DNA from: Myxococcales bacterium
GTDB lineage: Bacteria > Myxococcota_A > Polyangia > Nannocystales > Nannocystaceae
DNA length: 64,000 nt
Assembly: GCA_020633335.1 (NCBI GenBank)
Contig: JACKDU010000002.1
Coordinates: forward strand, 250,730 to 314,729
Reading direction: 5' to 3'
The position numbers and the translations under genes are program-made. Positions 2,977 through 61,950 of this stretch are shown one piece after another. How positions within the stretch are numbered: position 1 is the stretch's first letter; each line of letters begins with the position of its first letter. The notes under the pieces are model-generated. The model was given only the letters and a program-made list of their open reading frames with translations, made no database searches and was not told where the DNA came from.

Positions 2977-5166
2977 CTACTTCTTCTTCTTCTTGACCGA
3001 CATGAGGCCGCCGGAGTTCGCCGAGGAGGTCGTCGTCGCCGGCTTGCTGGTCGACGGCTTGCTCGTCGAGGTCGTCGACGGCGCGGACTTCGTGGTCGAC
3101 GGCTTCGTCGACTTCGTCGTCTTGCGGATCTTGGTCCCCCCCGTCGCGCCCGTCGACTGCGGGGTGAGCTCGGCGTTGATCGGGAAGGTCTTGTCGCTCT
3201 CGATCGTCACCGACTTCTTCCACGGCAGGTAGCCGTCGAGGCGGATCGTGACGACGTGGGGACCGGCCGCCAGCGGCTGGGGCTCGAGCGGCGTGATGCC
3301 GATCGGCGCGCCGCTGTCGTCGACGAAGACCGCGCCGCCGACCGGCGACGAGGCGGCCGAGAGCCAGCCGAGGGCGGCCTCGCTCGGCGCCCCGCTGAGG
3401 GCGGCGATCCGGGCGCGGGCCTCGCCGTGGTTCGGGTTGCGGAGGAGGATCTCGCGGTAGGCCTTGAGCGCCTCGTCGCGCTGGCGGGCCTCCTCGAAGG
3501 TCCGACCGCTGTTGAGGAGGTTGCCGATCTCGATCTGATCCTTGAGCGAGACGACCTTCTCCATGAGGTCGGGGTGGCGGGCGAAGTCGTTGTAGGAGGC
3601 GTCGAGGAGGCTGCTCGCCGGGTTGTAGCGGCCCCGCTCGATCGCCGCCTCGGCCCGGGCGATGGTGTCCTTGAGGCGCGCGATCTCCTCGGCCTCGTCG
3701 CTCTGCCCGGCGGCCCCGACCTCCGGGGTCGTCTCCCGCGGGGTGAGGGCGTAGTAGCCGAGGACCGCGACGACCACCAGGGTCAGGACGCCGAGCACGA
3801 CCATCCCGTTGCGCGAGCGCTCCGGCTGGACGTCGAGCTGGGGGAAGGCCCCCGGCGGGTAGGTCATCGACGACGGCATCATCCCCAGGTGGGCCTGGTG
3901 GGCGCCGGTCATCCCCGTCGGCCCGAGGCCGAGCGGGTTCGGGCCCATCGGCCCGGTCTGCGAGCCGACCGCGACCTGGGCGGCCGAGGCGGCGAAGCTC
4001 TGCGAGGTGTTGGAGGTCGCCGGCACCAACCCCGAGGGGCCCGAGGGCGCGGCCATCATCCCCGAGGGCCCCGAGGGCGCAGCCATCATCCCCGAGGGCG
4101 CCGACATCACCGACGAGGGGGCGTCGAGGCCGCGGCCGAAGGTGCCGACCTGGATGTCCTGCGGCCCCGGAATCGGCTCCGCCGAGACCTCACCGCTGGC
4201 CTGGTCCTGGTAGGGCTCGTCGAGGTCCTCCTCCTCCTGCTCGGGCGGCCGGGGCTCGGCCCGCGGCAGCTTGAACATCGAGAAGGGCACCTGATCGATG
4301 AGCCCCTCGACGACCTCGTTGGCGTCGCGCGGGCGCTTGCTCGGCGTCTTCTCGAGGCAGCGCTCGATCAGATCGATGACGCCGTCGGGGACCTGGTGGC
4401 CCTCCGGGAGGTGGTTGCGGAGCGGCTCCGGCTTCTCGTGGACGTGCTTGTAGAGGATCGACGCGTCGTTGTCGGCGGCGAAGGGCACCCGGCCCGCGAG
4501 CATGTAGTAGAAGAGGATTCCGACCGCGTAGACGTCGACCCGCTGATCGAGCTTCTCGCCCTTGATCTGCTCCGGCGAGAGGCACGTCGGGGTCCCGAGG
4601 ACGTTCTGCTTGGTGATGTCGGACGACCCCGAGACCAGCTTGGCCAGGCCGAAGTCGAGGATCTTGACGTAGTTGGCCCGCCCCTGGCGCTCGCAGAGCA
4701 TCAGGTTCGCCGGCTTGATGTCGCGGTGGATGATCCCGCGCGAGTGGGCCTCGCCGAGGCCCTTGAGGACCTGGGCCGCGATCGGCACGAAGTCGGCGAG
4801 CGTGAGCTGCCCCTTGCGCTTGACGAAGCGCTCGAGGGTCTCGCCGGCGACGTACTCCATGACGATGTAGGCGCGGCCGTCGAAGGAGCCGTAATCGTGG
4901 ATGGCGACGATGTTCGGGTGCTGGAGCGCGCTCAGCCCCCGGGCCTCGCGCTCGAAGCGGGCGAGCGCCTCCGGGTCCCCGATCCAGTCGGGGGCGAGCA
5001 CCTTGAGCACGACCTTCCGGTTGGCGTCCGTCTGGTTCGCCCGATAGACGAGCCCCATGCCGCCCCGGCCGAGGCGACGCTCGATCTTGTAGCGGCCCGC
5101 GAAGACCGTACCGATCAGAGGATCCTTTTGCTGCGGCCGTTCGTTGAGCGTGGTCATTGGAATCAT
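2977..5166 (-). CDS. eukaryote-like Ser/Thr protein kinase with TM segment, coiled/TPR-like region and PEGA domain
   Basis: Gly-loop GRGGMGLVY, beta3 Lys (KVVLKVL), catalytic loop HRDIKPANLML, DFG (ILDFGLAK), SPE motif (GTPTCLSPEQ). TM helix VVLGVLTLVVVAVLGYYAL. PEGA-like VTIRLDGYLPWKKSVTIE. S/T/K-rich tail ending KKKKK. Confidence 0.85.
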   Translation of the reverse strand: MIPMTTLNERPQQKDPLIGTVFAGRYKIERRLGRGGMGLVYRANQTDANRKVVLKVLAPDWIGDPEALARFEREARGLSALQHPNIVAIHDYGSFDGRAYIVMEYVAGETLERFVKRKGQLTLADFVPIAAQVLKGLGEAHSRGIIHRDIKPANLMLCERQGRANYVKILDFGLAKLVSGSSDITKQNVLGTPTCLSPEQIKGEKLDQRVDVYAVGILFYYMLAGRVPFAADNDASILYKHVHEKPEPLRNHLPEGHQVPDGVIDLIERCLEKTPSKRPRDANEVVEGLIDQVPFSMFKLPRAEPRPPEQEEEDLDEPYQDQASGEVSAEPIPGPQDIQVGTFGRGLDAPSSVMSAPSGMMAAPSGPSGMMAAPSGPSGLVPATSNTSQSFAASAAQVAVGSQTGPMGPNPLGLGPTGMTGAHQAHLGMMPSSMTYPPGAFPQLDVQPERSRNGMVVLGVLTLVVVAVLGYYALTPRETTPEVGAAGQSDEAEEIARLKDTIARAEAAIERGRYNPASSLLDASYNDFARHPDLMEKVVSLKDQIEIGNLLNSGRTFEEARQRDEALKAYREILLRNPNHGEARARIAALSGAPSEAALGWLSAASSPVGGAVFVDDSGAPIGITPLEPQPLAAGPHVVTIRLDGYLPWKKSVTIESDKTFPINAELTPQSTGATGGTKIRKTTKSTKPSTTKSAPSTTSTSKPSTSKPATTTSSANSGGLMSVKKKKK
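4031..4099. repeat. 30-bp tandem repeat (2.3 copies) inside the kinase linker
   Basis: cccgaggggcccgagggcgcggccatcatc and cccgagggccccgagggcgcagccatcatc, then a partial third copy. Encodes MMAAPSGPSG x2 on the minus strand. Confidence 0.8.
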
Positions 5167-5419
5167 TGGTTCGGCGCCGCCGGCAGCGACGATGCGCGCC
5201 TAGACGCTATCACAGCTTGGTCATCCTCGACTGATCTTCGGCGCACGGGCGAGGGTGCCGGGTTGTAGCACGGCGACGATCAACCGACACAAGCGTCAAT
5301 GCTTCGTCGACACGCCGGTGACGCTGGGGTCCCATCGACCCTCCGCGGCTCCCCGCCCCCATGTGGGGCATTTTCGCACAAAACCCACATAAGCCACGTC
5401 GCTGGCGGCTGGCGGCCCT

Positions 5420-7021
5420 TTGGCGACGTCGGCAAGGCCGCCTCTTTCGGCCGCCGAAAGCGGCCGAAGAGGACTCCGCCAGCGGCCGCCGACACGCCCC
5501 CCTCCGGCCGCCGACCCTTGCCCCAACGGCCAGGTCCTGGTGCATACTCCTGGCTCCGTGCCCACGCTGAGCTTCGCCAATTCCGTTCGCACTGCCGTCA
5601 AGGGCAGCGACGCGGTGGTCGTCATCGGCCCCGCCTCCACCCTCGCCGCCGACGCCCTCCCGGCCCTCTTCGATCCGCCGGTGCAGCGTCTGACCACCGA
5701 TCTCGCGGCCCTGATCAAGCCCGGCGATCTCGGCGCCGGCGGCAGCACGCTGACGGGCGCGAGCCCCGGCCGGATCTACGTCGGCGTCCTCCCCGACAAG
5801 CTCTCCCGCTACAACACGCCGACCCGCGCCGAGTCGATCCGTCGGGTGATCCCAGCCGGCGACCTCGGCCAGTACAAGAAGGTCGCGCTGATCCTGATCC
5901 TCGACGATCCGAGCCACTACCTCGCGGCCGCCAACGCGGTCGGTCGGGCCTTCCCCCTCTTCTCGGCCAAGGGCGGCAACGGCTCCGATCTCAAGCTGAC
6001 GATCGTCGCGATCGATCGCCACGGCGAGACCATCAAGTCGAACCCGCGGATCGCCGAGACGATGGAGACCACCCGGGCGATCGCCTCCCTGGTCGACACC
6101 CCGCCGAGCGACCTCAACCCCGAGACCTACGCCCACGAGGCCCGCCAGCTCCTCCACGGGCTCAAGGGGGTCAAGATCAAGGAGATCGTCGGCGACGCCC
6201 TGGTCAAGCAGGGGCTGATGGGGATCCACACCGTGGGCCGCTGCGCCCTCGCGGCCCCGCGGATGCTCATCGCCTCCTACACCCCGGCCGGCAAGGGGGC
6301 CTCGGAGCGCCACGTCGCCCTCGTCGGCAAGGGCGTCACCTACGACACCGGCGGCCTCAACATCAAGATCCAGGGGGCCATGCCGAACATGAAGTGCGAC
6401 ATGGCCGGCTCGGCCGCCCTCCTCGGCGCCTTCCGGGTGCTGGTCGCGAGCGGCTGCAAGCACCGGGTGAGCCTTGTCCTCTGCATCGCCGAGAACGCGA
6501 TCGGGCCGGCGGCCTACAAGCCCGACGACATCATCCGCCTCCACTCCGGCAAGACCGTCGAGATCAACAACACCGACGCCGAGGGGCGCCTCCTCCTCGC
6601 CGACGGGGTCTCCTACGCCGCCCGCGTCCTCAAGGCCGACACCGTGATCGACGCGGCGACCCTCACCGGCGCCCAGCTGGTGGCGACCGGCCTCCAGCAC
6701 GCGGCGGTGGTCTCGAACGACGACGAGGTCGAGAAGACCTTCATCGCCGCCGGCAAGGAGAGCGGCGATCTCGTCCACCCCCTCCCCTTCGCCCCCGAGC
6801 TCTTCAAGGCCGAGTTCGACAGCGCGGTCGCGGACATGTGCAACTCGGTGCGGAACCGCGCCAACGCCCAGACCGCCTGCGCCGCCCAGTTCGTCTACTG
6901 GCAGATCGACGACACCGGCGTGAAGTGGTGCCATATCGACCTCGCCGGCCCGGCCTTCCCGAAGAACCGCGCGACCGGATTCGGGGTTGCCCTGGTCGCC
7001 CAGGCGGTCGACGATCTCTAG
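5420..7021 (+). CDS. pepA: leucyl aminopeptidase (peptidase M17)
   Basis: M17 signature NTDAEGRL, VGKGVTYDTGG, MKCDMAGSAA. An in-frame GTG at 5540 gives a 493-aa protein of typical PepA length and would leave the 5453-5492 hairpin in the 5' UTR. The true start may therefore be 5540. Confidence 0.8.
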   Translation: MATSARPPLSAAESGRRGLRQRPPTRPPPAADPCPNGQVLVHTPGSVPTLSFANSVRTAVKGSDAVVVIGPASTLAADALPALFDPPVQRLTTDLAALIKPGDLGAGGSTLTGASPGRIYVGVLPDKLSRYNTPTRAESIRRVIPAGDLGQYKKVALILILDDPSHYLAAANAVGRAFPLFSAKGGNGSDLKLTIVAIDRHGETIKSNPRIAETMETTRAIASLVDTPPSDLNPETYAHEARQLLHGLKGVKIKEIVGDALVKQGLMGIHTVGRCALAAPRMLIASYTPAGKGASERHVALVGKGVTYDTGGLNIKIQGAMPNMKCDMAGSAALLGAFRVLVASGCKHRVSLVLCIAENAIGPAAYKPDDIIRLHSGKTVEINNTDAEGRLLLADGVSYAARVLKADTVIDAATLTGAQLVATGLQHAAVVSNDDEVEKTFIAAGKESGDLVHPLPFAPELFKAEFDSAVADMCNSVRNRANAQTACAAQFVYWQIDDTGVKWCHIDLAGPAFPKNRATGFGVALVAQAVDDL

Positions 7022-7055
7022 CGGCCCCGGGCGGGCCCAGGAGCACGAGCACGAC

Positions 7056-7742
7056 ATGACGATGACGATCCCGGAGGGCTGGCGCGCCGCCGTCGGCGAC
7101 GAGCTTTCGAAGCCCTACTTCCGCAAGCTCGAGGACTTCCTCGCCGCCGAGAGGAAGAGCGAGCAGGTCTTCCCGCCGGCCGACGAGGTCTTCACCGCCC
7201 TCGCGCTCACCCCCTTCGACCAGGTCAAGGTCGTGATCCTCGGCCAGGATCCCTACCACGACGACGGCCAGGCCCACGGCCTCTCCTTCTCGGTCAAGCC
7301 GGGGATCAAGCCGCCGCCCTCGCTGGTCAACATGTACAAGGAGATGGAGGCCGACCTCGGCTGCCCGCGCCCGAGCCACGGCTACCTCGCCCACTGGGCG
7401 CGCCAGGGCGTGCTGATGCTCAACGCGGTCCTCACCGTCCGCGCCCACACCCCGAACTCGCACAAGGGGAAGGGCTGGGAGAAGTTCACCGACGCGGTGA
7501 TCAAGGCGCTGAGCGGCCGGCCGAAGCCGATGGTCTTCGTCCTCTGGGGCGGCTTCGCCCAGAAGAAGGAGAAGCTCATCGACGGCCACCACGTGATCGT
7601 CAAGGGCGCCCACCCCTCGCCGCTCTCGGCCCGGAGCGGCTTCTTCGGGAGCAAGCCCTTCTCGACGATCAACGGCCACCTCGCCAAGATGGGCGACGCG
7701 CCGATCGACTGGTGCCTGACCGACGCTCACCTCGCCGACTAG
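7056..7742 (+). CDS. ung: uracil-DNA glycosylase, family 1
   Basis: GQDPYH water-activating motif, HPSPLS, LLNAVLTV. Start at ATG 7056 after GGAG. The ORF-track start at TTG 6987 adds a non-conserved extension. The stop TAG at 7740-7742 is embedded in CTAG. Confidence 0.85.
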   Translation: MTMTIPEGWRAAVGDELSKPYFRKLEDFLAAERKSEQVFPPADEVFTALALTPFDQVKVVILGQDPYHDDGQAHGLSFSVKPGIKPPPSLVNMYKEMEADLGCPRPSHGYLAHWARQGVLMLNAVLTVRAHTPNSHKGKGWEKFTDAVIKALSGRPKPMVFVLWGGFAQKKEKLIDGHHVIVKGAHPSPLSARSGFFGSKPFSTINGHLAKMGDAPIDWCLTDAHLAD

Positions 7743-7897
7743 TGCCTCGACCGCGACGTATCGACCCACCTCGCGTCGGGATCGCCGTCGCTGGCTAGGC
7801 GCGAGGAGGGCGCAGATCGGGCATCTGTAACCGACGAGCAACAACGCCAGCGGCGGCGAGACCAAGCGAGGTGGGTCGATACGTCGCGGTCGCGGCA
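7743..7897. mobile_element. MITE-like element: 32-bp terminal inverted repeats (31/32 identical) around a 91-bp core, flanked by CTAG on both sides
   Basis: Arm 7743-7774 tgcctcgaccgcgacgtatcgacccacctcgc. Arm 7866-7897 is its reverse complement with one mismatch. CTAG at 7739-7742 and 7898-7901. No coding capacity. Confidence 0.45.
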
Positions 7898-7901
7898 CTA
7901 G

Positions 7902-9240
7902 CAGGCTGCTGAGAAATGCGCGGCGCATCGCGTCGATAGCCGGCCGCGGTCCTTCCGAGACTCGGGAGGACACGTCCCCGCCGGCTCGCGCGCCCTTGCA
8001 GGGGGCCTTCACCGGGTCCCGAAGGCCGCGCTCTGCGGCCTCCGGGCCCCGGCCTCATGCGCTGCCGAGCAGGAGCTTGGCGATCCGCAGCAGGTTGTAC
8101 GAGGCGCCGACGAAGAGCGCCGCCATCTCCGTACGCTCTCGGCCCCGAAGCCTTGTCCTCCGGAAGTGGCCGACCGTCTTGTCCCAGCCGAAGATCTCTT
8201 CGACTCGCTTTCGCACCCGCTGAGAGACCGTGTAGCCCTCATGACGCGAGGTCCGCCCGTCGATCGCCGAGCCGCCGCAGTGCTTGGTGTTCATGGCGAC
8301 ATGCGGGGTGATCTTCAGCTCGCGGCAGCGCGCGACGAAGGCTCGCGTGTCGTATCCCTTGTCGGCCGCGAGCGTGCGTCGGTTCCTCGTCGGTGCGAGC
8401 CGCCCGATCATCGTCGCCGCGGCCTCGACCTCTGCGCGCCCGTGGGCGTGCGTCACCACCAGATCGACGATGAGGCCGTTGCGGTTCTCCATCAGCACGT
8501 GCTTCGCGTAGGAGAGCTTGGCCTCCTTCCCAAAGCCCTTGCGGGCCAGCCGTGCGTCGGGATCCGTCGTCGATGCGTGGGTCTCGTTGCGCCGCTTCTG
8601 GCCGTGGAAGTTGACGGTCGGATTGCGCGAGCCGTCGCTCGCGGGGCGCTCCTCGGCCGACTCGTCCTTCGGCCGAAAGCTCTTCAGCGACGCCCACGCC
8701 TCGACCAGCGTCCCGTCCACCGTGAAGTGCTCGCTGCTCGTGAGCTTCTCGGCGTTCGCCTTGGCGACCACCGCGGCGAAGAAGCTCCGCGCGACGTCGT
8801 GGTCCATCAGCCGCTCGCGGTTCTTGCTGAACGTCGTCGGGTGAAACGCGCCCTCGGTCATGTCCATGTCGAGGAACCAGCGGAAGAGCATGTTGTAGTC
8901 GAGCTGCTCGCAGAACATCCGGTCGCTGCGCACCGAATAGAGGGCCATCAGCACCGTCGCCTTGAGTAGCGACTCCGGTGGGATCGAAGGCCGGCCGACG
9001 GCCGCGTACATCTCATCGAAGAGCGGCGACATCTCCCGGAGGATCCCGTCGACGAGCGTCTTCACCTCGCGGATCGGGTGCCGCTGCGGGATCCGACTCT
9101 CGACGTCGACAAGGCAGACAAGGGAGGTCTGGGGGTCCTTCGCGCCGCGCATACGACGGTTGTACGAAATCGCGCGTCGGTCGCGAAGACCCGAAGTGAG
9201 CTCGGCTGCGTGTGGTTACGCAGGGTTTTTCAGCAACCTG
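7902..9240 (-). mobile_element. IS5-family insertion sequence (1339 bp) with 4-bp CTAG target-site duplication
   Basis: Imperfect terminal inverted repeats caggctgctgagaaat (7902-) and caggttgctgaaaaa (reverse complement of 9226-9240). CTAG directly abuts both ends (7898-7901 and 9241-9244), matching the YTAR target preference of the IS5 group. Single intact transposase ORF. Confidence 0.8.
8055..9152 (-). CDS. IS5-family DDE transposase
   Basis: 365-aa DDE_Tnp_1-type protein (…LIVDLVVTHAHGRAEVEAAA…LAADKGYDTRAF…EEIFGWDKTVGHFRRTRLRGRER…LLRIAKLL), typical of the IS5/IS1031 group. Confidence 0.85.
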   Translation of the reverse strand: MRGAKDPQTSLVCLVDVESRIPQRHPIREVKTLVDGILREMSPLFDEMYAAVGRPSIPPESLLKATVLMALYSVRSDRMFCEQLDYNMLFRWFLDMDMTEGAFHPTTFSKNRERLMDHDVARSFFAAVVAKANAEKLTSSEHFTVDGTLVEAWASLKSFRPKDESAEERPASDGSRNPTVNFHGQKRRNETHASTTDPDARLARKGFGKEAKLSYAKHVLMENRNGLIVDLVVTHAHGRAEVEAAATMIGRLAPTRNRRTLAADKGYDTRAFVARCRELKITPHVAMNTKHCGGSAIDGRTSRHEGYTVSQRVRKRVEEIFGWDKTVGHFRRTRLRGRERTEMAALFVGASYNLLRIAKLLLGSA

Positions 9241-9264
9241 CTAGTGCCGGGCCCGCAGAAACAT

Positions 9265-9300
9265 GAAGACGGGCGACGCCGAGTCGGCGCGCCCGTCTTC
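9265..9300 (-). terminator. possible hairpin terminator downstream of the 9321-9698 gene
   Basis: gaagacgggcg…cgcccgtcttc 11-bp stem enclosing a second palindrome cgccgagtcggcg. No clear U-tract. Confidence 0.3.
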
Positions 9301-9320
9301 GTGCTCGAGGTGGATCCCGA

Positions 9321-9698
9321 TCAGCTCGGCAGGCGCTCGCCCTGAGCTTGGCCGAAGATCCGATCGATCGCGAACTGCACCTCCTCGGTGAGGTGGTTGG
9401 GCTCGCCGAGGGCCGCGAGGTAGAAGGGCCGACCGCGGACCTCGACCCGCCAGATCTGGACGACCTCGCCGCGGGTGATCGCGTCCAGGAGCTCCTGGTT
9501 GAGGTTGGCCGGCTCCTCGGCGACGATCGGCGCGACCGCGGCGAGCTTCTCCGAGCGGTCGCCGACCCCGGTCACGCAGAGCCCCTTGGTCGAGGCCAGG
9601 GCCACGGTGTGGAGGCCCGTCCGCTCGGAGATGGACTTGAGGTAGTAACCCGCGGCTTCCCACGGGACAGTGCTGCGCTCGTTGCGACGATCAATCAT
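9321..9698 (-). CDS. hypothetical protein, possible roadblock/LC7-fold protein
   Basis: Start taken at MIDRRNE. The central segment HTVALASTKGLCVTGVGD…RVEVRGRPFYLAALGEPNHL has the alternating pattern of roadblock/LC7 proteins. Weak. Confidence 0.4.
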   Translation of the reverse strand: MIDRRNERSTVPWEAAGYYLKSISERTGLHTVALASTKGLCVTGVGDRSEKLAAVAPIVAEEPANLNQELLDAITRGEVVQIWRVEVRGRPFYLAALGEPNHLTEEVQFAIDRIFGQAQGERLPS

Positions 9699-22468: not shown

Positions 22469-22674
22469 GGGTCGCCTCGAGGCCGGCTTGTACCACCTGC
22501 CGACGCGGGCAGCGACCAGGTATGACATCGAGGGTCAGGCATGACAGAGATGTCAGGGTGCCTGCGCAAGCGGGCGGCGCGCCCCTGACATCTGCGTCAT
22601 ACCTAGGTCAGAAATTCGTGCGCGCACGGCCGCCCCGACAAGGTGGCATCAACAATTTCAACGACTTGCCAAAG

Positions 22675-22690
22675 TGGCACCCGACCTGCA
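22675..22690 (+). promoter_or_regulatory. putative sigma54 (-24/-12) promoter firing rightward into the CT-rich block
   Basis: TGGCAC-ccgac-CTGCA: perfect -24 element, GC at -12, correct GG-to-GC spacing of 12 nt. Predicted TSS ~22702. Confidence 0.4.
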
Positions 22691-22739
22691 GACAAGGCGG
22701 GCGTCTGCCCAACAAGCAGACCCTTCTAGCCTAGCTCTT

Positions 22740-23040
22740 CGACTCGCTTGCCTGACTTCGACTGACTGACTTGGCCTGACTTCGCCTCTTCTTTTGCCGC
22801 TTGGTCTCGCTTCGCCTGGTCTCACCTGCCGCTCGCTCCTTGCCCTCTACGCACGCGCTCGCCCTACCGCTTGAGCGCGCCCGCTCCTCTGTTCGGTTCT
22901 CCTTCGCTTGATGGCTTCTCAGATCCTCCTGCGCTTGGCTTGAATCCTCTCTTGTTGGCTTATTTGGCCTTCTCTGGACTGAAATAGACGAATTGACGCG
23001 CTCCGGCGCGTTCGCATGGTCGGTGCTGAAACTTAGAACT
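22740..23040 (+). ncRNA. pyrimidine-rich (C+T ~80% on + strand), lower-GC non-coding block. Candidate sigma54-driven ncRNA or long leader.
   Basis: No ORF in any frame. Short degenerate repeats (gacttcg, cttgg, ctcgcttcgcc). Sits between the sigma54 promoter and an intrinsic terminator on the same strand. The reverse strand is the argC upstream region. Confidence 0.4.
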
Positions 23041-46852: not shown

Positions 46853-49012
46853 ATGACTGAGCAAGCCGACACCGATTCCGGTTTCCCGACCAAGGGGTCG
46901 CTCAAGCGCATCCCCTTCCCTCAGCTCGTCCGCCAGATCGCCCGCGCCGAGATCACCGGCAGCCTCTACCTGCTCAACGGCCAGACGAAGAAGGTCGTCT
47001 TCTTCCGCAGCGGCAAGCCAGTCTCGGTCCGCTCCAACGTGATCTCCGAGTGCCTCGGCCAGATCCTCGCCCAGGAGGGGATCATCACCCAGGAGCAGAG
47101 CGACAACTCGCTCGAGGCGGTCCGCCGCACCGGCAAGAAGCAGGGCGAGCTCCTGATCGAGATGGGCCTCCTCTCCGAGGGCAACCTCCACTACGGCCTC
47201 GACGCCCAGTTCCGGACCAAGCTCGGCGACATCTTCTCGTGGGAGGAGGGGCGCTTCCAGTTCAAGCCCGGGGGCGACGACGGCGGCGAGGCGCCGCCCT
47301 CCGAGTGCCACGAGAACATCATCATCGCGGCGATCCAGGAGCGCTACACCGACGAGCGGGCGCGCCACGCCCTCCGCCCCTTCGCCGGCAAGTACCCGGT
47401 GGCGACGCCGCGCTGGACCTCGAACATCGCGCCCCTCGGCCTGATCCCCGAGGAGGAGTACTTCGTCCGCTGCCTCGACGGCAGCCGCAGCGTCGACGAT
47501 CTCCTCAGCGGGACGATCGACCCCGAGGTCCCGCGGGTGTCGACGCTCCTCTACGGGCTCATCGAGGCCGGGATCGTCGATCTCAAGGAGCGCAAGCTCC
47601 TCGCCCGCCCGCGGCCGCAGAAGCCGATCCTCCAGCCCCGTGAATTCGACGACGACGACCTCGCGCCGGACTTCGAGCCCGCCAGCGTGATCGGCGAGTA
47701 CGAGGACACGCCGCTGCCGAGCCGGCTGCCGAGCCCGGCCGCGTCGACCTCGCGCCTGCCGGCGCTGCCGACCGAGGACGAGGAGATGTTCGCGGGCGTC
47801 GCCGCCCTCGACGAGGACGAGAGCGTGGTCCTCGACACCCGCGACATCCGCGGACGCCCCGGCCGCTTCGCCCCCGCGCCGGCCCCCGCCCCCGCGCCGG
47901 CCCCGGCCCCGCTGAGCGACCTCGACGACGACGAGACCGACTTCAGCGACCTCGACGACGAGGCGCCCCACCGCGAGGAGCCGACCACCCTCGACGGCGG
48001 CCCCCTCGACCTCGACGAGGAGAGCTTCGACGACGAGGTCGAGCTCCTCGACGAGGAGGAGATGGTCGAGATGGTCGAGGAGGTCGAGCCGGTCGAGGCG
48101 ATCGAGGCGATCGAGCCCGAGCCCGCCCCCGCGGCGATCGACCCGCTCGACGCGCTCGACGACGACCTCGACGACGACCTCGACGACATCGACGAGCTGG
48201 CGACCGCGGCGATCGAGCCCGAGGACTCGATGGAGCTGCCGGCCGCCGCCGTGATCGAGGAGCTGAGCGCGACGGGCCTCGACGCGCTCCCCGAGCTCGA
48301 GCCGGGCGACTCGGCGATCGAGGCGATCCCGCTCGACGAGATCAGCGAGGTGGCGCCGGTCGCCGACGTCCTCGATGAGCTCGACGACATCGACGACCTC
48401 GCCCTCGACGCCGGCGAGCTCGCCCTCGACGACGTCGAGCTCGGCGACCTCGGCGACCTCGACGACCTCGCGGACGACCTCGGCGACCTCGACGACCTCG
48501 ACCTCGGCGACATCGACGACATCGACGACGACCTCCTGGTCAGCGAGAGCCAGGCGGCCGCGCCGGTCGAGATCGCCGAGATCGGTGACATCGACGACAT
48601 CGGCGACCTCGACGACATCGACGACCTCGCCCTCGACGACGAGCTCGGCGGCGACGTCGGCGGCCAGCGCTATCAAGAGGCGGTCAACGCGATGAGCGAG
48701 GGCGACTTCGCCTCGGCCAGCGTCCTCTTCGAGGAGGCCTACCAGCACGGCTACGACTACGCCGAGCTCCACTCGATGCTGGCCTACGCCCGCTACCGGG
48801 CCGCCGGTGGCAACCCGGCCGCGGCCCAGGACTCCCTCGAGCTCCTCGACTACGCCGAGCAGCGCGATCCGGATCTCGACATGGTCCACGCCTACCGCGG
48901 GGCGATCCTCCTCGGCCTCGGGGCGACCGACAGCGCCCGCGAGAGCTTCGAGCGCGCCCTCCAGCTCAACCCCTACTGCGAGCTGGCGATCCAGTACATC
49001 AACAACATGTAG
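46853..49012 (+). CDS. DUF4388-like domain protein with ~330-aa poly-acidic repeat region and C-terminal TPR
   Basis: N-terminal SLYLLNGQTKKVVFFRSGKPV (DUF4388-like, duplicated). (PA)5 linker. aa ~255-600 dominated by D/E/L repeats (DLDDL, DIDDL). C-terminal TPR (YQHGYDYAELHSMLAYARY…ALQLNPY). Confidence 0.7.
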   Translation: MTEQADTDSGFPTKGSLKRIPFPQLVRQIARAEITGSLYLLNGQTKKVVFFRSGKPVSVRSNVISECLGQILAQEGIITQEQSDNSLEAVRRTGKKQGELLIEMGLLSEGNLHYGLDAQFRTKLGDIFSWEEGRFQFKPGGDDGGEAPPSECHENIIIAAIQERYTDERARHALRPFAGKYPVATPRWTSNIAPLGLIPEEEYFVRCLDGSRSVDDLLSGTIDPEVPRVSTLLYGLIEAGIVDLKERKLLARPRPQKPILQPREFDDDDLAPDFEPASVIGEYEDTPLPSRLPSPAASTSRLPALPTEDEEMFAGVAALDEDESVVLDTRDIRGRPGRFAPAPAPAPAPAPAPLSDLDDDETDFSDLDDEAPHREEPTTLDGGPLDLDEESFDDEVELLDEEEMVEMVEEVEPVEAIEAIEPEPAPAAIDPLDALDDDLDDDLDDIDELATAAIEPEDSMELPAAAVIEELSATGLDALPELEPGDSAIEAIPLDEISEVAPVADVLDELDDIDDLALDAGELALDDVELGDLGDLDDLADDLGDLDDLDLGDIDDIDDDLLVSESQAAAPVEIAEIGDIDDIGDLDDIDDLALDDELGGDVGGQRYQEAVNAMSEGDFASASVLFEEAYQHGYDYAELHSMLAYARYRAAGGNPAAAQDSLELLDYAEQRDPDLDMVHAYRGAILLGLGATDSARESFERALQLNPYCELAIQYINNM

Positions 49013-60870: not shown

Positions 60871-61950
60871 ATGGAATCCTCCCTCCGAGCCAAGCTCGAG
60901 AGCATCGCCGAGCATCATGAGGAGCTCGGGGAGATGCTCTGCGATCAGGAGATCGCCACCGACAAGACCCGCTTCCTCCAGCTCTCGCGCGAGCACGCCG
61001 AGATTTCCCCGGTCGCCGAGGCCTACCGCCGCCTCATCGACCTCGAGGCCGAGCTCGCCGACGCCGAGGCCCTCCTCGCCGATCCCGACATGCGCGAGCT
61101 CGCCGAGGCCGACGTCGGCCGCCTCCGCGAGGAGCTCGCCGACCACGAGAAGAGCCTCCAGCGCCTCCTCCTCCCCAAGGATCCGAACGACAACAAGAAC
61201 GTCATCCTCGAGATCCGGGCGGGCGCCGGCGGCGAGGAGGCGGCCCTCTTCGCCGCCGATCTCTGGCGGATGTACAGCCGCTTCGCCGAGCGCAAGGGCT
61301 GGACGATCGAGATGATGAACGTCAGCGAGGCGAGCGCGGGCGGCTTCAAGGAGATCTCGGGGCAGATCACCGGCAAGGACGTCTACGCCCTCCTCAAGTT
61401 CGAGAGCGGCGTCCACCGGGTCCAGCGGGTGCCGGCGACCGAGTCGCAGGGCCGGATCCACACCTCGACCGCGACCGTCGCGGTGATGCCCGAGGCCGAG
61501 GACATCGACGTCGAGGTAAACCCGAAGGACCTCGAGATCCAGACGATGCGAGCGAGCGGCGCCGGCGGTCAGCACGTCAACACCACCGACTCGGCGGTCC
61601 GGATCACCCACATCCCCAGCGGGATCGCGGTCCACTGCCGACAGGAGAAGTCGCAGCAGAAGAACCGCGAGATCGCCATGCGCCTCCTCCGCTCGCGCCT
61701 CCTCGACATCGAGATCCAGAAGTACCAGAGCGCCCGCGCGGCCCAGCGCCGGGGGCAGATCGGCTCGGGCGACCGCTCGGAGAAGATCCGGACCTACAAC
61801 TTCCCGCAGGACCGGATCTCCGACCACCGGATCAACCTCACCCGCCACGCGATCAGCGACTTCATGGACGGCGGGATCGAGGACGTGATCGAGTCGCTGC
61901 GGGCGAGCGACGAGGCCGATCGCCTCGCCGAGCAGTCCGAGGCGAACTAG
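60871..61950 (+). CDS. prfA: peptide chain release factor 1
   Basis: GGQ motif ([23 protein letters not shown]). PxT-type codon-recognition region. 359 aa. Confidence 0.9.

Follow-up and report, generated by a model that had tools for sequence, protein, structure and literature searches.

Introduction

The prototype of the IS5 family, IS5 of E. coli, encodes its DDE transposase, which contains DUF772 and DDE_Tnp_1, in a single ORF. It measures about 1.2-1.4 kb, is bounded by short inverted repeats and duplicates 4 bp at CTAG/YTAR, CTAG being the consistent duplication of IS5 (PMC10379815). A second described system is ISAzs10 of Azospirillum sp. B510, which carries the PGAP name 'IS5-like element ISAzs10 family transposase' and has relatives in Bradyrhizobium, Skermanella and Indioceanicola plasmids. 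Small palindromic repeats, the REP/BIME units, are targeted by IS1397 and ISKpn1. Prokaryotic MITEs, for which the definition of PMC10969869 is used here, are exemplified by the Correia elements of Neisseria and the QMITEs of Coxiella; such elements are typically AT-rich (PMC10969869).

In the window (the whole 64-kb stretch of DNA that was analysed), two successive transposition events very probably took place at one CTAG between the convergent ung gene and a 125-aa gene. The insertion sequence (IS) found there shares the listed features of IS5, but the relation is at the family level only, given by the match to the NF033581 model and with no close homologue. Its inverted repeat, CAGGYTGCTGARAAA, is of the ISAzs10-like clade type in contrast to that of IS5 itself. 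With ISAzs10, the IS shares both CAGGnnGCnGAAAAAG, the core of the inverted repeats, and a YTAR duplication of 4 bp. However, the ISAzs10 relatives duplicate TTAG or CTAA, whereas the IS of the window was seen at CTAG only, and its host belongs to another phylum (Myxococcota). The second inserted element resembles the prokaryotic MITEs by its length below 500 bp, inverted repeats, probable flanking direct repeats, lack of coding sequence and several near-identical copies, as well as by the stable stem-loop which its transcript would form and by its location at gene ends. In contrast to the AT-rich MITEs, its GC content is 69% and its target is CTAG. No sequence relation to any described MITE was detected, and neither Rfam nor the plasmid collection gave a match. 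Similarly to IS1397 and ISKpn1, the IS occurs repeatedly in or beside copies of a short palindromic repeat, but it belongs to a different IS family and enters the CTAG flanking the repeat instead of the loop; its putative preference for this position may be simply due to an extended target motif.

Results and Discussion

Structure of the ung locus

The gene at 7056-7742 (plus strand) was assigned as ung, encoding a uracil-DNA glycosylase of 228 aa, by the NCBIfam ung equivalogs (312 bits) and Pfam UDG. Its stop codon TAG (7740-7742) lies within the CTAG at 7739-7742, which is the original target and probably the left copy of the duplication made by the MITE-like element, and has been preserved despite the insertions. 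The same junction was found in the contigs L011-L014, which encode a protein identical to that of the window ung. The CTAG is followed by the 155-bp non-coding MITE-like element (7743-7897), the terminal inverted repeats of which (7743-7774 and 7866-7897) match at 31/32 positions. The next CTAG (7898-7901) has a dual role: it is probably the right-hand CTAG made by the MITE-like element and also belongs to the duplication of the IS. It corresponds to the single CTAG of the metagenome contig L017. The IS5-family IS of 1339 bp (7902-9240, minus strand), delimited by its inverted repeats and by homologous ISs, contains an intact transposase gene (8055-9152, minus strand; 365 aa). By comparison with L017, the CTAG at 9241-9244, which is followed by TGCC, was identified as the other copy of the target site duplicated by the IS. 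A sequence-only reading had described this nested arrangement, namely the ung stop codon inside a CTAG, the 155-bp element with its paired arms, the second CTAG and the 1339-bp IS ending in a third; all of its coordinates and counts were reproduced in the 64-kb window.

Properties and distribution of the IS

The 15-nt inverted repeats of the IS, CAGGCTGCTGAGAAA and CAGGTTGCTGAAAAA, match at 13/15 positions; the repeat at 7902-7916 lies downstream of the transposase gene and that at 9226-9240 upstream of it. The transposase consists of DUF772 (PF05598, 79.5 bits) and DDE_Tnp_1 (PF01609, 55.2 bits). With the NF033581 model of the IS5 family the score was 263 bits against the cutoff of 140, while the score of 200 bits with the IS1182 model was under the cutoff of 270. 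The type of the DDE transposase, the single ORF, the inverted repeats and the length in the range of 1-1.5 kb all agree with the IS5 family. The protein is identical to MCB9701407.1, 'IS5 family transposase [Myxococcales bacterium]', and shares 52-54% identity, end to end, with the ISAzs10-family transposases. Judged by its sequence, with the identity to the ISAzs10 relatives below 55%, the element is a distinct new IS.

The inverted-repeat core is common to the homologues L098, L100, L102, L109 and L111. In the Azospirillum ISAzs10 copy L098, TTAG was found on both sides, and CTAA was found in L099; the Bradyrhizobium copy L100 has TTAG, then CAGGCTGCTGAAAAAG..., then TTAG again. Since TTAG, present at both ends in homologues, is non-palindromic, it shows that the 4 bp are duplicated in direct orientation. 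The relatives with 72-75% identity (L102, L109 and L111) have CTAG on both sides.

Copies 100% identical to the window IS over about 1.34 kb were detected in 9 of the 10 contigs. Altogether, 13 distinct IS junctions were identified, of which 6 belong to one end and 7 to the opposite end. They represent at least 7 sites, and CTAG was present at all of the junctions, as expected from the earlier claim that the IS duplicates CTAG. The left and right flank pairings were obtained from short-read contigs spanning a 1.3-kb repeat and may be chimeric. The contigs L001-L010 originate from samples such as SRR14234051 and the WANG18-1 series. The insertion at the ung locus is polymorphic, an IS-free allele being present in L017. 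With identical copies at no fewer than 7 sites and a polymorphic insertion, the IS appears to have been recently active, which the sequence-only reading had suggested from the perfect duplication and the intact ORF.

The IS-free allele and the order of the insertions

The removal of the IS and one CTAG copy from the window gives ggcaCTAGtgcc, and this exact sequence exists in L017. The contig reads ...gcccggcaCTAGtgccgcgaccgcgacgtatcg, where the MITE-like element is joined straight to the right-hand flank through a single CTAG without the IS. The restoration of an IS-free sequence by deletion and the occurrence of two successive insertions, both previously proposed from the window, are thus matched by an existing MITE-only allele. 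The 4-bp YTAR/CTAG duplication of the IS5 type is apparent from the one CTAG in L017 and the two in the window. Because L017 has the MITE-like element without the IS, the order was determined as MITE first, IS second; L017 proves both this order and the 4-bp duplication by the IS. The reversed order, with the IS inserted first and the MITE-like element second, is allowed by the final structure alone and was rejected owing to the MITE-only allele.

The proposed course of events would have taken place in the chromosome of an uncultured Myxococcota bacterium, at a site that would have read ...gccgaCTAGtgccgggccc... with TAG as the ung stop codon. In the first event, a 155-bp non-autonomous element with 32-nt terminal inverted repeats (TGCC...GGCA) and without coding capacity would have entered this site and duplicated CTAG, with the transposase presumably supplied in trans from elsewhere. 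In the second event, the 1339-bp IS would have entered the distal CTAG copy, at that time reading ggcaCTAGtgcc. Its DDE transposase would bind the CAGGYTGCTGARAAA ends and make 4-bp staggered cuts, by which CTAG would be duplicated again; this chemistry we take to be that of the IS5 family in general. As TAG is regenerated by the duplication, the ung reading frame remains intact. Some effect of the hairpin on the ung mRNA is conceivable.

The 155-bp MITE-like element

The element has a size of 155 bp (<500 bp), inverted repeats and only spurious ORFs in non-coding frames. A pair of arms matching at 31/32 positions did not occur in 100 shuffles. Aligned as inverted repeats, the two halves of the element agree at 59/78 positions, and the complete element folds into a single hairpin with dG of -132.6 kcal/mol (z = -15). 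The pairing along the whole element suggests that it arose from one IS end duplicated in inverted orientation. An internal CTAG is located at 7795. The transposase gene of a parent element would be bounded by TGCCNCGACCGCGACGTATCGACCCACCTCGC as inverted repeats.

Dispersed copies were found in at least three contexts: the ung locus, L004 and, as a variant, L001. L004 contains a full copy with 1 SNP behind the stop codon of another gene (gagCTAG). Further copies were detected in L005 and L011, and a 16-nt arm fragment in L003 and L010. The mobility of the 155-bp unit, which the sequence-only reading had assumed, is borne out by the second full copy, the variant copy and the absence of the element after ung in syntenic relatives. 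CTAG occurs on both sides of three copies (the window, L004 and L011), from which it can be concluded that the element probably duplicated CTAG upon insertion. CTAG is palindromic, and in the case of the MITE-like element a 4-bp duplication is formally inseparable from a duplication of TA alone combined with extended inverted repeats. A 6-bp NCTAGN duplication like that of IS481 was suggested by the TG...CA ends and fits the window, with ACTAGT at either end of the element; it was rejected because L004 (GCTAGT vs ACTAG-) and L011 (ACTAGT vs ACTAGC) do not agree with it. The L011 contig, which belongs to a MAG, diverges from the window exactly at the distal CTAG of the MITE-like element and has another right flank. 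This may be due to a rearrangement, or two MITE copies may have been joined during assembly. The 10-nt likeness of this flank to the window at 61947 was considered a chance match.

No similarity was detected between the MITE arms and the IS ends, as had been noted earlier from the window. Because the ends are unrelated, the IS at ung was excluded as the parent of the MITE-like element, and we infer that the latter was mobilised in trans by another transposase. DNA scans of public collections did not reveal an autonomous element with the inverted repeats of the MITE. The 20-mer arm core had 0 matches in the genome contigs with one genome per species, and the terminal motif had 0 in viral contigs; BLASTN of the element against plasmids resulted in 0 matches as well. 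The sole match of the metagenome-contig scan, L015, is a single arm core inside low-GC coding sequence and was regarded as chance. No Rfam matches were obtained for the locus at permissive thresholds or for the whole window at gathering thresholds.

Orthologous ung sites and alternative explanations

In the relatives, ung is likewise preceded by a kinase and an M17 peptidase gene, and followed by a 124-aa gene and PmbA/TldD. In the syntenic relatives L103-L108, the Ung proteins of which are 78-80% identical, no MITE-like element follows ung; in L106-L108 ccCTAG is present, with a 115-bp spacer after it. A MITE-empty allele of near-identical sequence was not found. The MITE arm was found in 0 of the 80 ung loci. 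A Nannocystis sp. MAG (L018), which has the closest ung among the GTDB representatives (75% identity), was tried as an empty site and discarded, having a TGA stop codon and a different downstream gene.

The very stable fold directly 3' of the ung stop codon could also be read as a resident hairpin of the gene, acting as a terminator or mRNA stabiliser, which would leave the IS as the sole insertion. The element is indeed present at the ung site in every recovered assembly of the organism, the ung-locus copy being found in 5 independent assemblies. However, its near-identical copies occur elsewhere: that of L004 follows a different gene, and another is located in L001. The syntenic relatives have an ordinary short terminator hairpin in its place. 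In addition, the element has neither a U-tract nor an Rfam match, and the assemblies are interrupted within it, which is also the case at repeats. The resident-hairpin explanation is thereby largely refuted, and we consider it highly improbable.

The pairing of the element along its full length, with 59/78 between the halves, and the fixed tetranucleotide at both ends of every copy would likewise be expected from a REPIN or an IS200/IS605-type element moved as single-stranded DNA by a Y1 (HUH) transposase, with CTAG as the cleavage or target tetranucleotide and not a DDE duplication. By inspection, however, the 32-nt arm is not a REP-like palindrome, its best internal stem being 3 bp, and the ends are symmetric inverted repeats, unlike those of the IS200/IS605 derivatives, in which the left hairpin differs from the right one. 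The left CTAG is owned by the host as part of the ung stop codon, and two flanking CTAGs form the pattern of a 4-bp duplication. The Pfam scan of the 30 other window genes revealed no Y1 or any other transposase domain. With no internal palindrome above 3 bp in the arm and no Y1 gene among these 30 genes, membership in the REPIN/RAYT group is unlikely, and so is this explanation as a whole. The insertion of a MITE-like element followed by that of the IS is preferred over both alternatives.

Target choice of the IS

A further reading, compatible with the two insertions and added to them, is that the target of the IS is an extended palindromic GGCA-CTAG-TGCC with at least one half-site, so that the MITE tips would recreate the target and serve as preferred landing pads. 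GGCA/TGCC adjoins CTAG at 7 of the 13 distinct IS junctions and is present on at least one side in every contig having both junctions. It was also detected at flanks without the MITE-like element, namely in the coding sequence of L101, in a 40-nt intergenic spacer of L002 and at the right flank of the window. CTAGTGCC occurs nowhere else in the window (0/50 background half-sites). The frequency at the non-MITE flanks, 4/9, differed from the background of 0/50, drawn from the 64 kb only, with p = 2.8e-4 in the Fisher test. Against the extended target, the sample is small and its flank pairings are possibly chimeric; the TGCC flanks in L003 and L006 may be MITE fragments. Moreover, the IS relatives with 52-75% identity have no GGCA/TGCC flank, and one more IS flank without it was found in L112. 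We regard the extended target as a tentative explanation, with somewhat less than an even chance of being correct. Slightly more doubtful is the consequence that each MITE insertion makes two high-affinity IS sites and that the IS/MITE nesting in this lineage is systematic, not accidental. If true, one transposon would make insertion sites for another, which would be of interest for mobile-DNA specialists and would involve no new principle. The case is one of ordinary transposon biology with a possible small twist in the target choice of the IS.

CTAG at gene ends and the right flank of the insertion site

The window contains 29 CTAGs in 64 kb compared with 86 expected, which is about 3-fold depletion, and the genome GC content is 72%. 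Due to this depletion, the four CTAGs within 1.5 kb are not a matter of chance. In 17 of the 29 cases, CTAG overlaps a stop codon that ends a high-GC3 ORF. As CTAG is both depleted and mostly located on stop codons, CTAG-specific elements are channelled to gene ends. The locus is a worked example of how CTAG depletion and TAG stop codons direct such elements to gene ends, where the insertion is harmless as the stop codon is regenerated. For annotation, it provides a new IS5-family IS and a new 155-bp MITE family in uncultured Myxococcota (Nannocystales-like). The presence of the MITE and IS at ung also explains why short-read assemblies break right after this gene.

A native stem-loop with 14-nt arms was located by the inverted-repeat search at 9262-9303, between ung and the convergent 125-aa gene. 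It is probably a terminator common to the two genes and is now about 1.5 kb away from ung; the syntenic relatives L106-L108 have a comparable hairpin in their spacer. The 125-aa gene (9321-9698, minus strand) forms the right flank of the insertion site. It encodes a conserved hypothetical protein with no Pfam or NCBIfam match. The TTG-start form of the gene (144 aa) had no matches, while the 125-aa form had exact ones on L016 and L017 and orthologues of 124 aa at the same position in L103-L107.

Structure of the ung locus and an IS-free allele

The window, from a Myxococcota bacterium with 72% GC, is ordinary chromosomal DNA, and its gene products include a PEGA Ser/Thr kinase, a sigma-54 activator, squalene-hopene cyclase and TPR proteins. 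The ung gene (7056-7742; 228 aa) was recognized by Pfam UDG and by the NCBIfam ung equivalogs with up to 312 bits; its closest named relative is that of a Nannocystis sp. MAG. The stop codon TAG (7740-7742) is preceded by C and is thus held in a CTAG (7739-7742), directly followed by the 155-bp element (7743-7897), a second CTAG (7898-7901), the 1339-bp IS (7902-9240; ends CAGGCTGCTGAGAAA and CAGGTTGCTGAAAAA) and a third CTAG (9241-9244). The sole ORF of the IS is an intact 365-aa transposase gene on the minus strand (8055-9152). From the ung stop to the third CTAG, the description made in the sequence-only reading agreed exactly with the window sequence.

The copies of the IS were gathered by an exact-protein look-up of the transposase, which resulted in ten short metagenome contigs, and two further contigs were obtained from cluster variants. 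Nine of the ten contigs had IS DNA 100% identical to the window copy, and the remaining one had 99.85% identity. CTAG was found at all 13 distinct junctions, of which 6 lie on the side upstream of the transposase gene and 7 on the opposite side, as had been anticipated for other copies of the IS. The seven distinct junctions at one end correspond, therefore, to at least seven insertion sites.

In contig L017, the exact 125-aa downstream gene is followed by ...gcccggcaCTAGtgccgcgaccgcgacgtatcg, which is the window sequence minus the IS and one CTAG. Because L017 is an IS-free allele, it proves that the IS made a 4-bp duplication, that the IS is polymorphic at the ung locus and that the MITE was present before the IS. 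Taken by itself, the final structure would be compatible also with insertion of the IS first and the MITE second; this order is ruled out by L017. The order and the 4-bp IS duplication proposed earlier were thereby upheld by the single CTAG of the IS-free allele.

Family and ends of the IS

The transposase carries DUF772 and DDE_Tnp_1 domains and scored 263 bits with the NCBIfam IS5-family model NF033581 (cutoff 140) and 200 bits with the IS1182 model, which is under the cutoff of 270. It is identical to MCB9701407.1, 'IS5 family transposase [Myxococcales bacterium]', and the nearest annotated relatives, including the 'IS5-like element ISAzs10 family transposase' of Azospirillum sp. B510, are 52-54% identical. 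A Bradyrhizobium copy has the ends CAGGCTGCTGAAAAAG...CTTTTTCAGCAGCCTG between two TTAGs, ISAzs10 starts with CAGGCCGCGGAAAAAGG and is also flanked by TTAG on both sides, and a copy on the Indioceanicola profundi plasmid NZ_CP030129.1 ends with ...CCCTG followed by CTAA. In metagenomic relatives with 72-75% identity, the IS is bounded by CTAG at either end. The comparison of these DNA ends settled the IS boundaries in the window, and the clade has in common, therefore, the core of the inverted repeats and a direct duplication of 4 bp (YTAR). The latter is the IS5-type pattern, and CTAG is cited as the IS5 duplication (PMC10379815). The element is a new IS5-family IS, a known kind.

An IS701-family transposase gene is located about 230 bp from the Indioceanicola copy (L099:1478-1868). 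The second inverted repeat of this copy was absent from the 400 bp upstream, so the copy may be truncated or nested.

CTAG and insertion at stop codons

In the 64-kb window, CTAG was observed 29 times (for example, at 7018, 9821, 13568, 13586, 17824 and 61947) compared with 86 expected from dinucleotide shuffles, being about 3-fold under-represented; owing to this rarity, the CTAG cluster at ung is not due to chance. Seventeen of the 29 share bases with the stop codons of long ORFs (GC3 >= 0.85) on either strand, and CTAG-specific elements are, therefore, steered to gene ends in this genome. IS sites on stop codons were also found in the IS-bearing contigs L002, L112 and L101. In L101, the IS lies in a CTAG (446-449 and 1789-1792) giving the stops of two convergent genes (TAG, and CTA read as TAG), and both stops are preserved by the duplication. 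At ung, TAG was likewise regenerated and the Ung protein is unchanged. The hairpin at 9262-9303, the probable ung terminator, is now 1.5 kb from ung, and the MITE hairpin lies directly 3' of the stop codon; any effect of these changes on ung mRNA is speculation.

The CTAG at 61947 is the apparent end of ORFs on both strands. Three CTAGs (22603, 22726, 22731) lie in an unusually low-GC intergenic stretch (22500-22860), which gave no tRNA or Rfam match and contains a sigma-54-like -24/-12 motif, TGGCAC-N5-CTGCA, at 22675-22690.

The 155-bp element as a MITE

The 32-nt inverted-repeat ends of the 155-bp element agree at 31 of 32 positions, compared with no such pair in 100 shuffles, and its two halves are identical at 59 of 78 positions as an inverted repeat. 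With its flanks, the element folds into one hairpin with a free energy of -132.6 kcal/mol (z = -15 relative to shuffles).

The ung-MITE junction is present in five independent assemblies, three of which stop 23 nt into the arm, as at repeats. A full copy with one SNP was found beside the IS in L004, with CTAG on both sides, the outer one including the stop codon of a gene other than ung. A CTAG-bounded 158-bp variant lies beside the IS and behind an Amino_oxidase-domain gene in L001 (1764-1929); one half (loop and arm, 97% identical) is kept and the distal 57 nt are unrelated GC-rich hairpin-like sequence, so the variant is possibly a hybrid MITE or a rearranged one. A 16-nt arm fragment was present beside the IS in L003 and L010. 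Contig L011 (GCA_020431225.1, JAGQIR010000003.1) is 99.1% identical to window 3056-7902 and diverges exactly at the distal CTAG of the MITE into a sigma-70 gene absent from the window (L011:4844-6633), reflecting either recombination between MITE copies or another rearrangement, or an assembly join across repeat copies.

Relatives with 78-80% identical Ung keep the order kinase, M17 peptidase, ung, 124-aa gene and PmbA/TldD, and the element was not found in the ung/124-aa-gene spacer of these syntenic contigs (L103-L108). In L106-L108, ung is followed by ccCTAG and a spacer of 115 bp, in which a plain hairpin resembles a terminator; in L103-L105 (Ung about 79% identical), the spacer is 366-376 bp and full of tandem repeats unrelated to the MITE. 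With copies elsewhere (L004, L001) and none in the syntenic relatives, the unit is not a single-copy structure conserved in place, in accordance with its earlier interpretation as mobile.

MITEs are usually described as <500 bp long and non-coding, with terminal inverted repeats, a stable stem-loop and direct repeats on both flanks (PMC10969869). The element agrees with this description, the flanking CTAGs being its probable direct repeats, and, unlike the usual MITE, is not AT-rich (69% GC in a 72% GC genome). It represents a new MITE family, a known kind. A 6-bp NCTAGN duplication, as in IS481, is consistent with the window and inconsistent with L004 and L011; the preferred reading is that 4 bp, CTAG, were duplicated and that the repeats start at TGCC. 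No similarity was detected between the element ends and the IS ends, as noted previously, and a Pfam scan gave no transposase domain in the 30 other window genes.

Directly 3' of the ung CTAG stop, L106 (3676-3692), L107 and L108 have CAGGCCCTTCAAGCAGG, which agrees with the consensus of the IS inverted repeats in CAGG(C) and at about 10 of 16 positions; this resemblance may reflect a decayed solo IS end or be fortuitous. The tandem repeats at L103:3676-4041, L104:3676-4051 and L105:1303-1488 consist of 3-4 copies of GCCGAGACCG and about 5 copies of a ~29-bp unit GGCGGCGAACGCTCTGRCCGAGCCGTTCT, and their copy number varies between samples.

Possible extended target of the IS

GGCA/TGCC adjoins CTAG at 7 of the 13 IS junctions, and on at least one side in every contig showing both junctions. 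Two of the seven are MITE arms, one is the 16-nt fragment of L003/L010 and four are not MITE arms: L101 coding sequence, the 40-nt spacer of L002, the IRR-side flank of L006 and the window right flank. Among non-MITE flanks the frequency was 4/9 compared with 0/50 background half-sites (Fisher p = 2.8e-4), or 4/10 with L112 added, and CTAGTGCC was found nowhere else in the window. These flanks suggest, at somewhat less than even confidence, an extended target GGCA-CTAG-TGCC that is recreated by the MITE tips, and the nesting of the IS and the MITE would then be non-random. The confidence is limited by the small sample, by possible chimeric pairing of flanks in the short-read contigs, by the possible origin of some flanks from MITE fragments and by the lack of such a flank in the relatives of the IS. 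The possible extended target is the one lead worth follow-up.

Other repeats in the window

The window-wide repeat search was dominated by densely packed, degenerate repeats of short period (GACGACCTCGAC type) at 47900-48700, inside the coding sequence of a DUF4388 ORF (46853-49012), where they encode an acidic D/E/L-rich low-complexity region.
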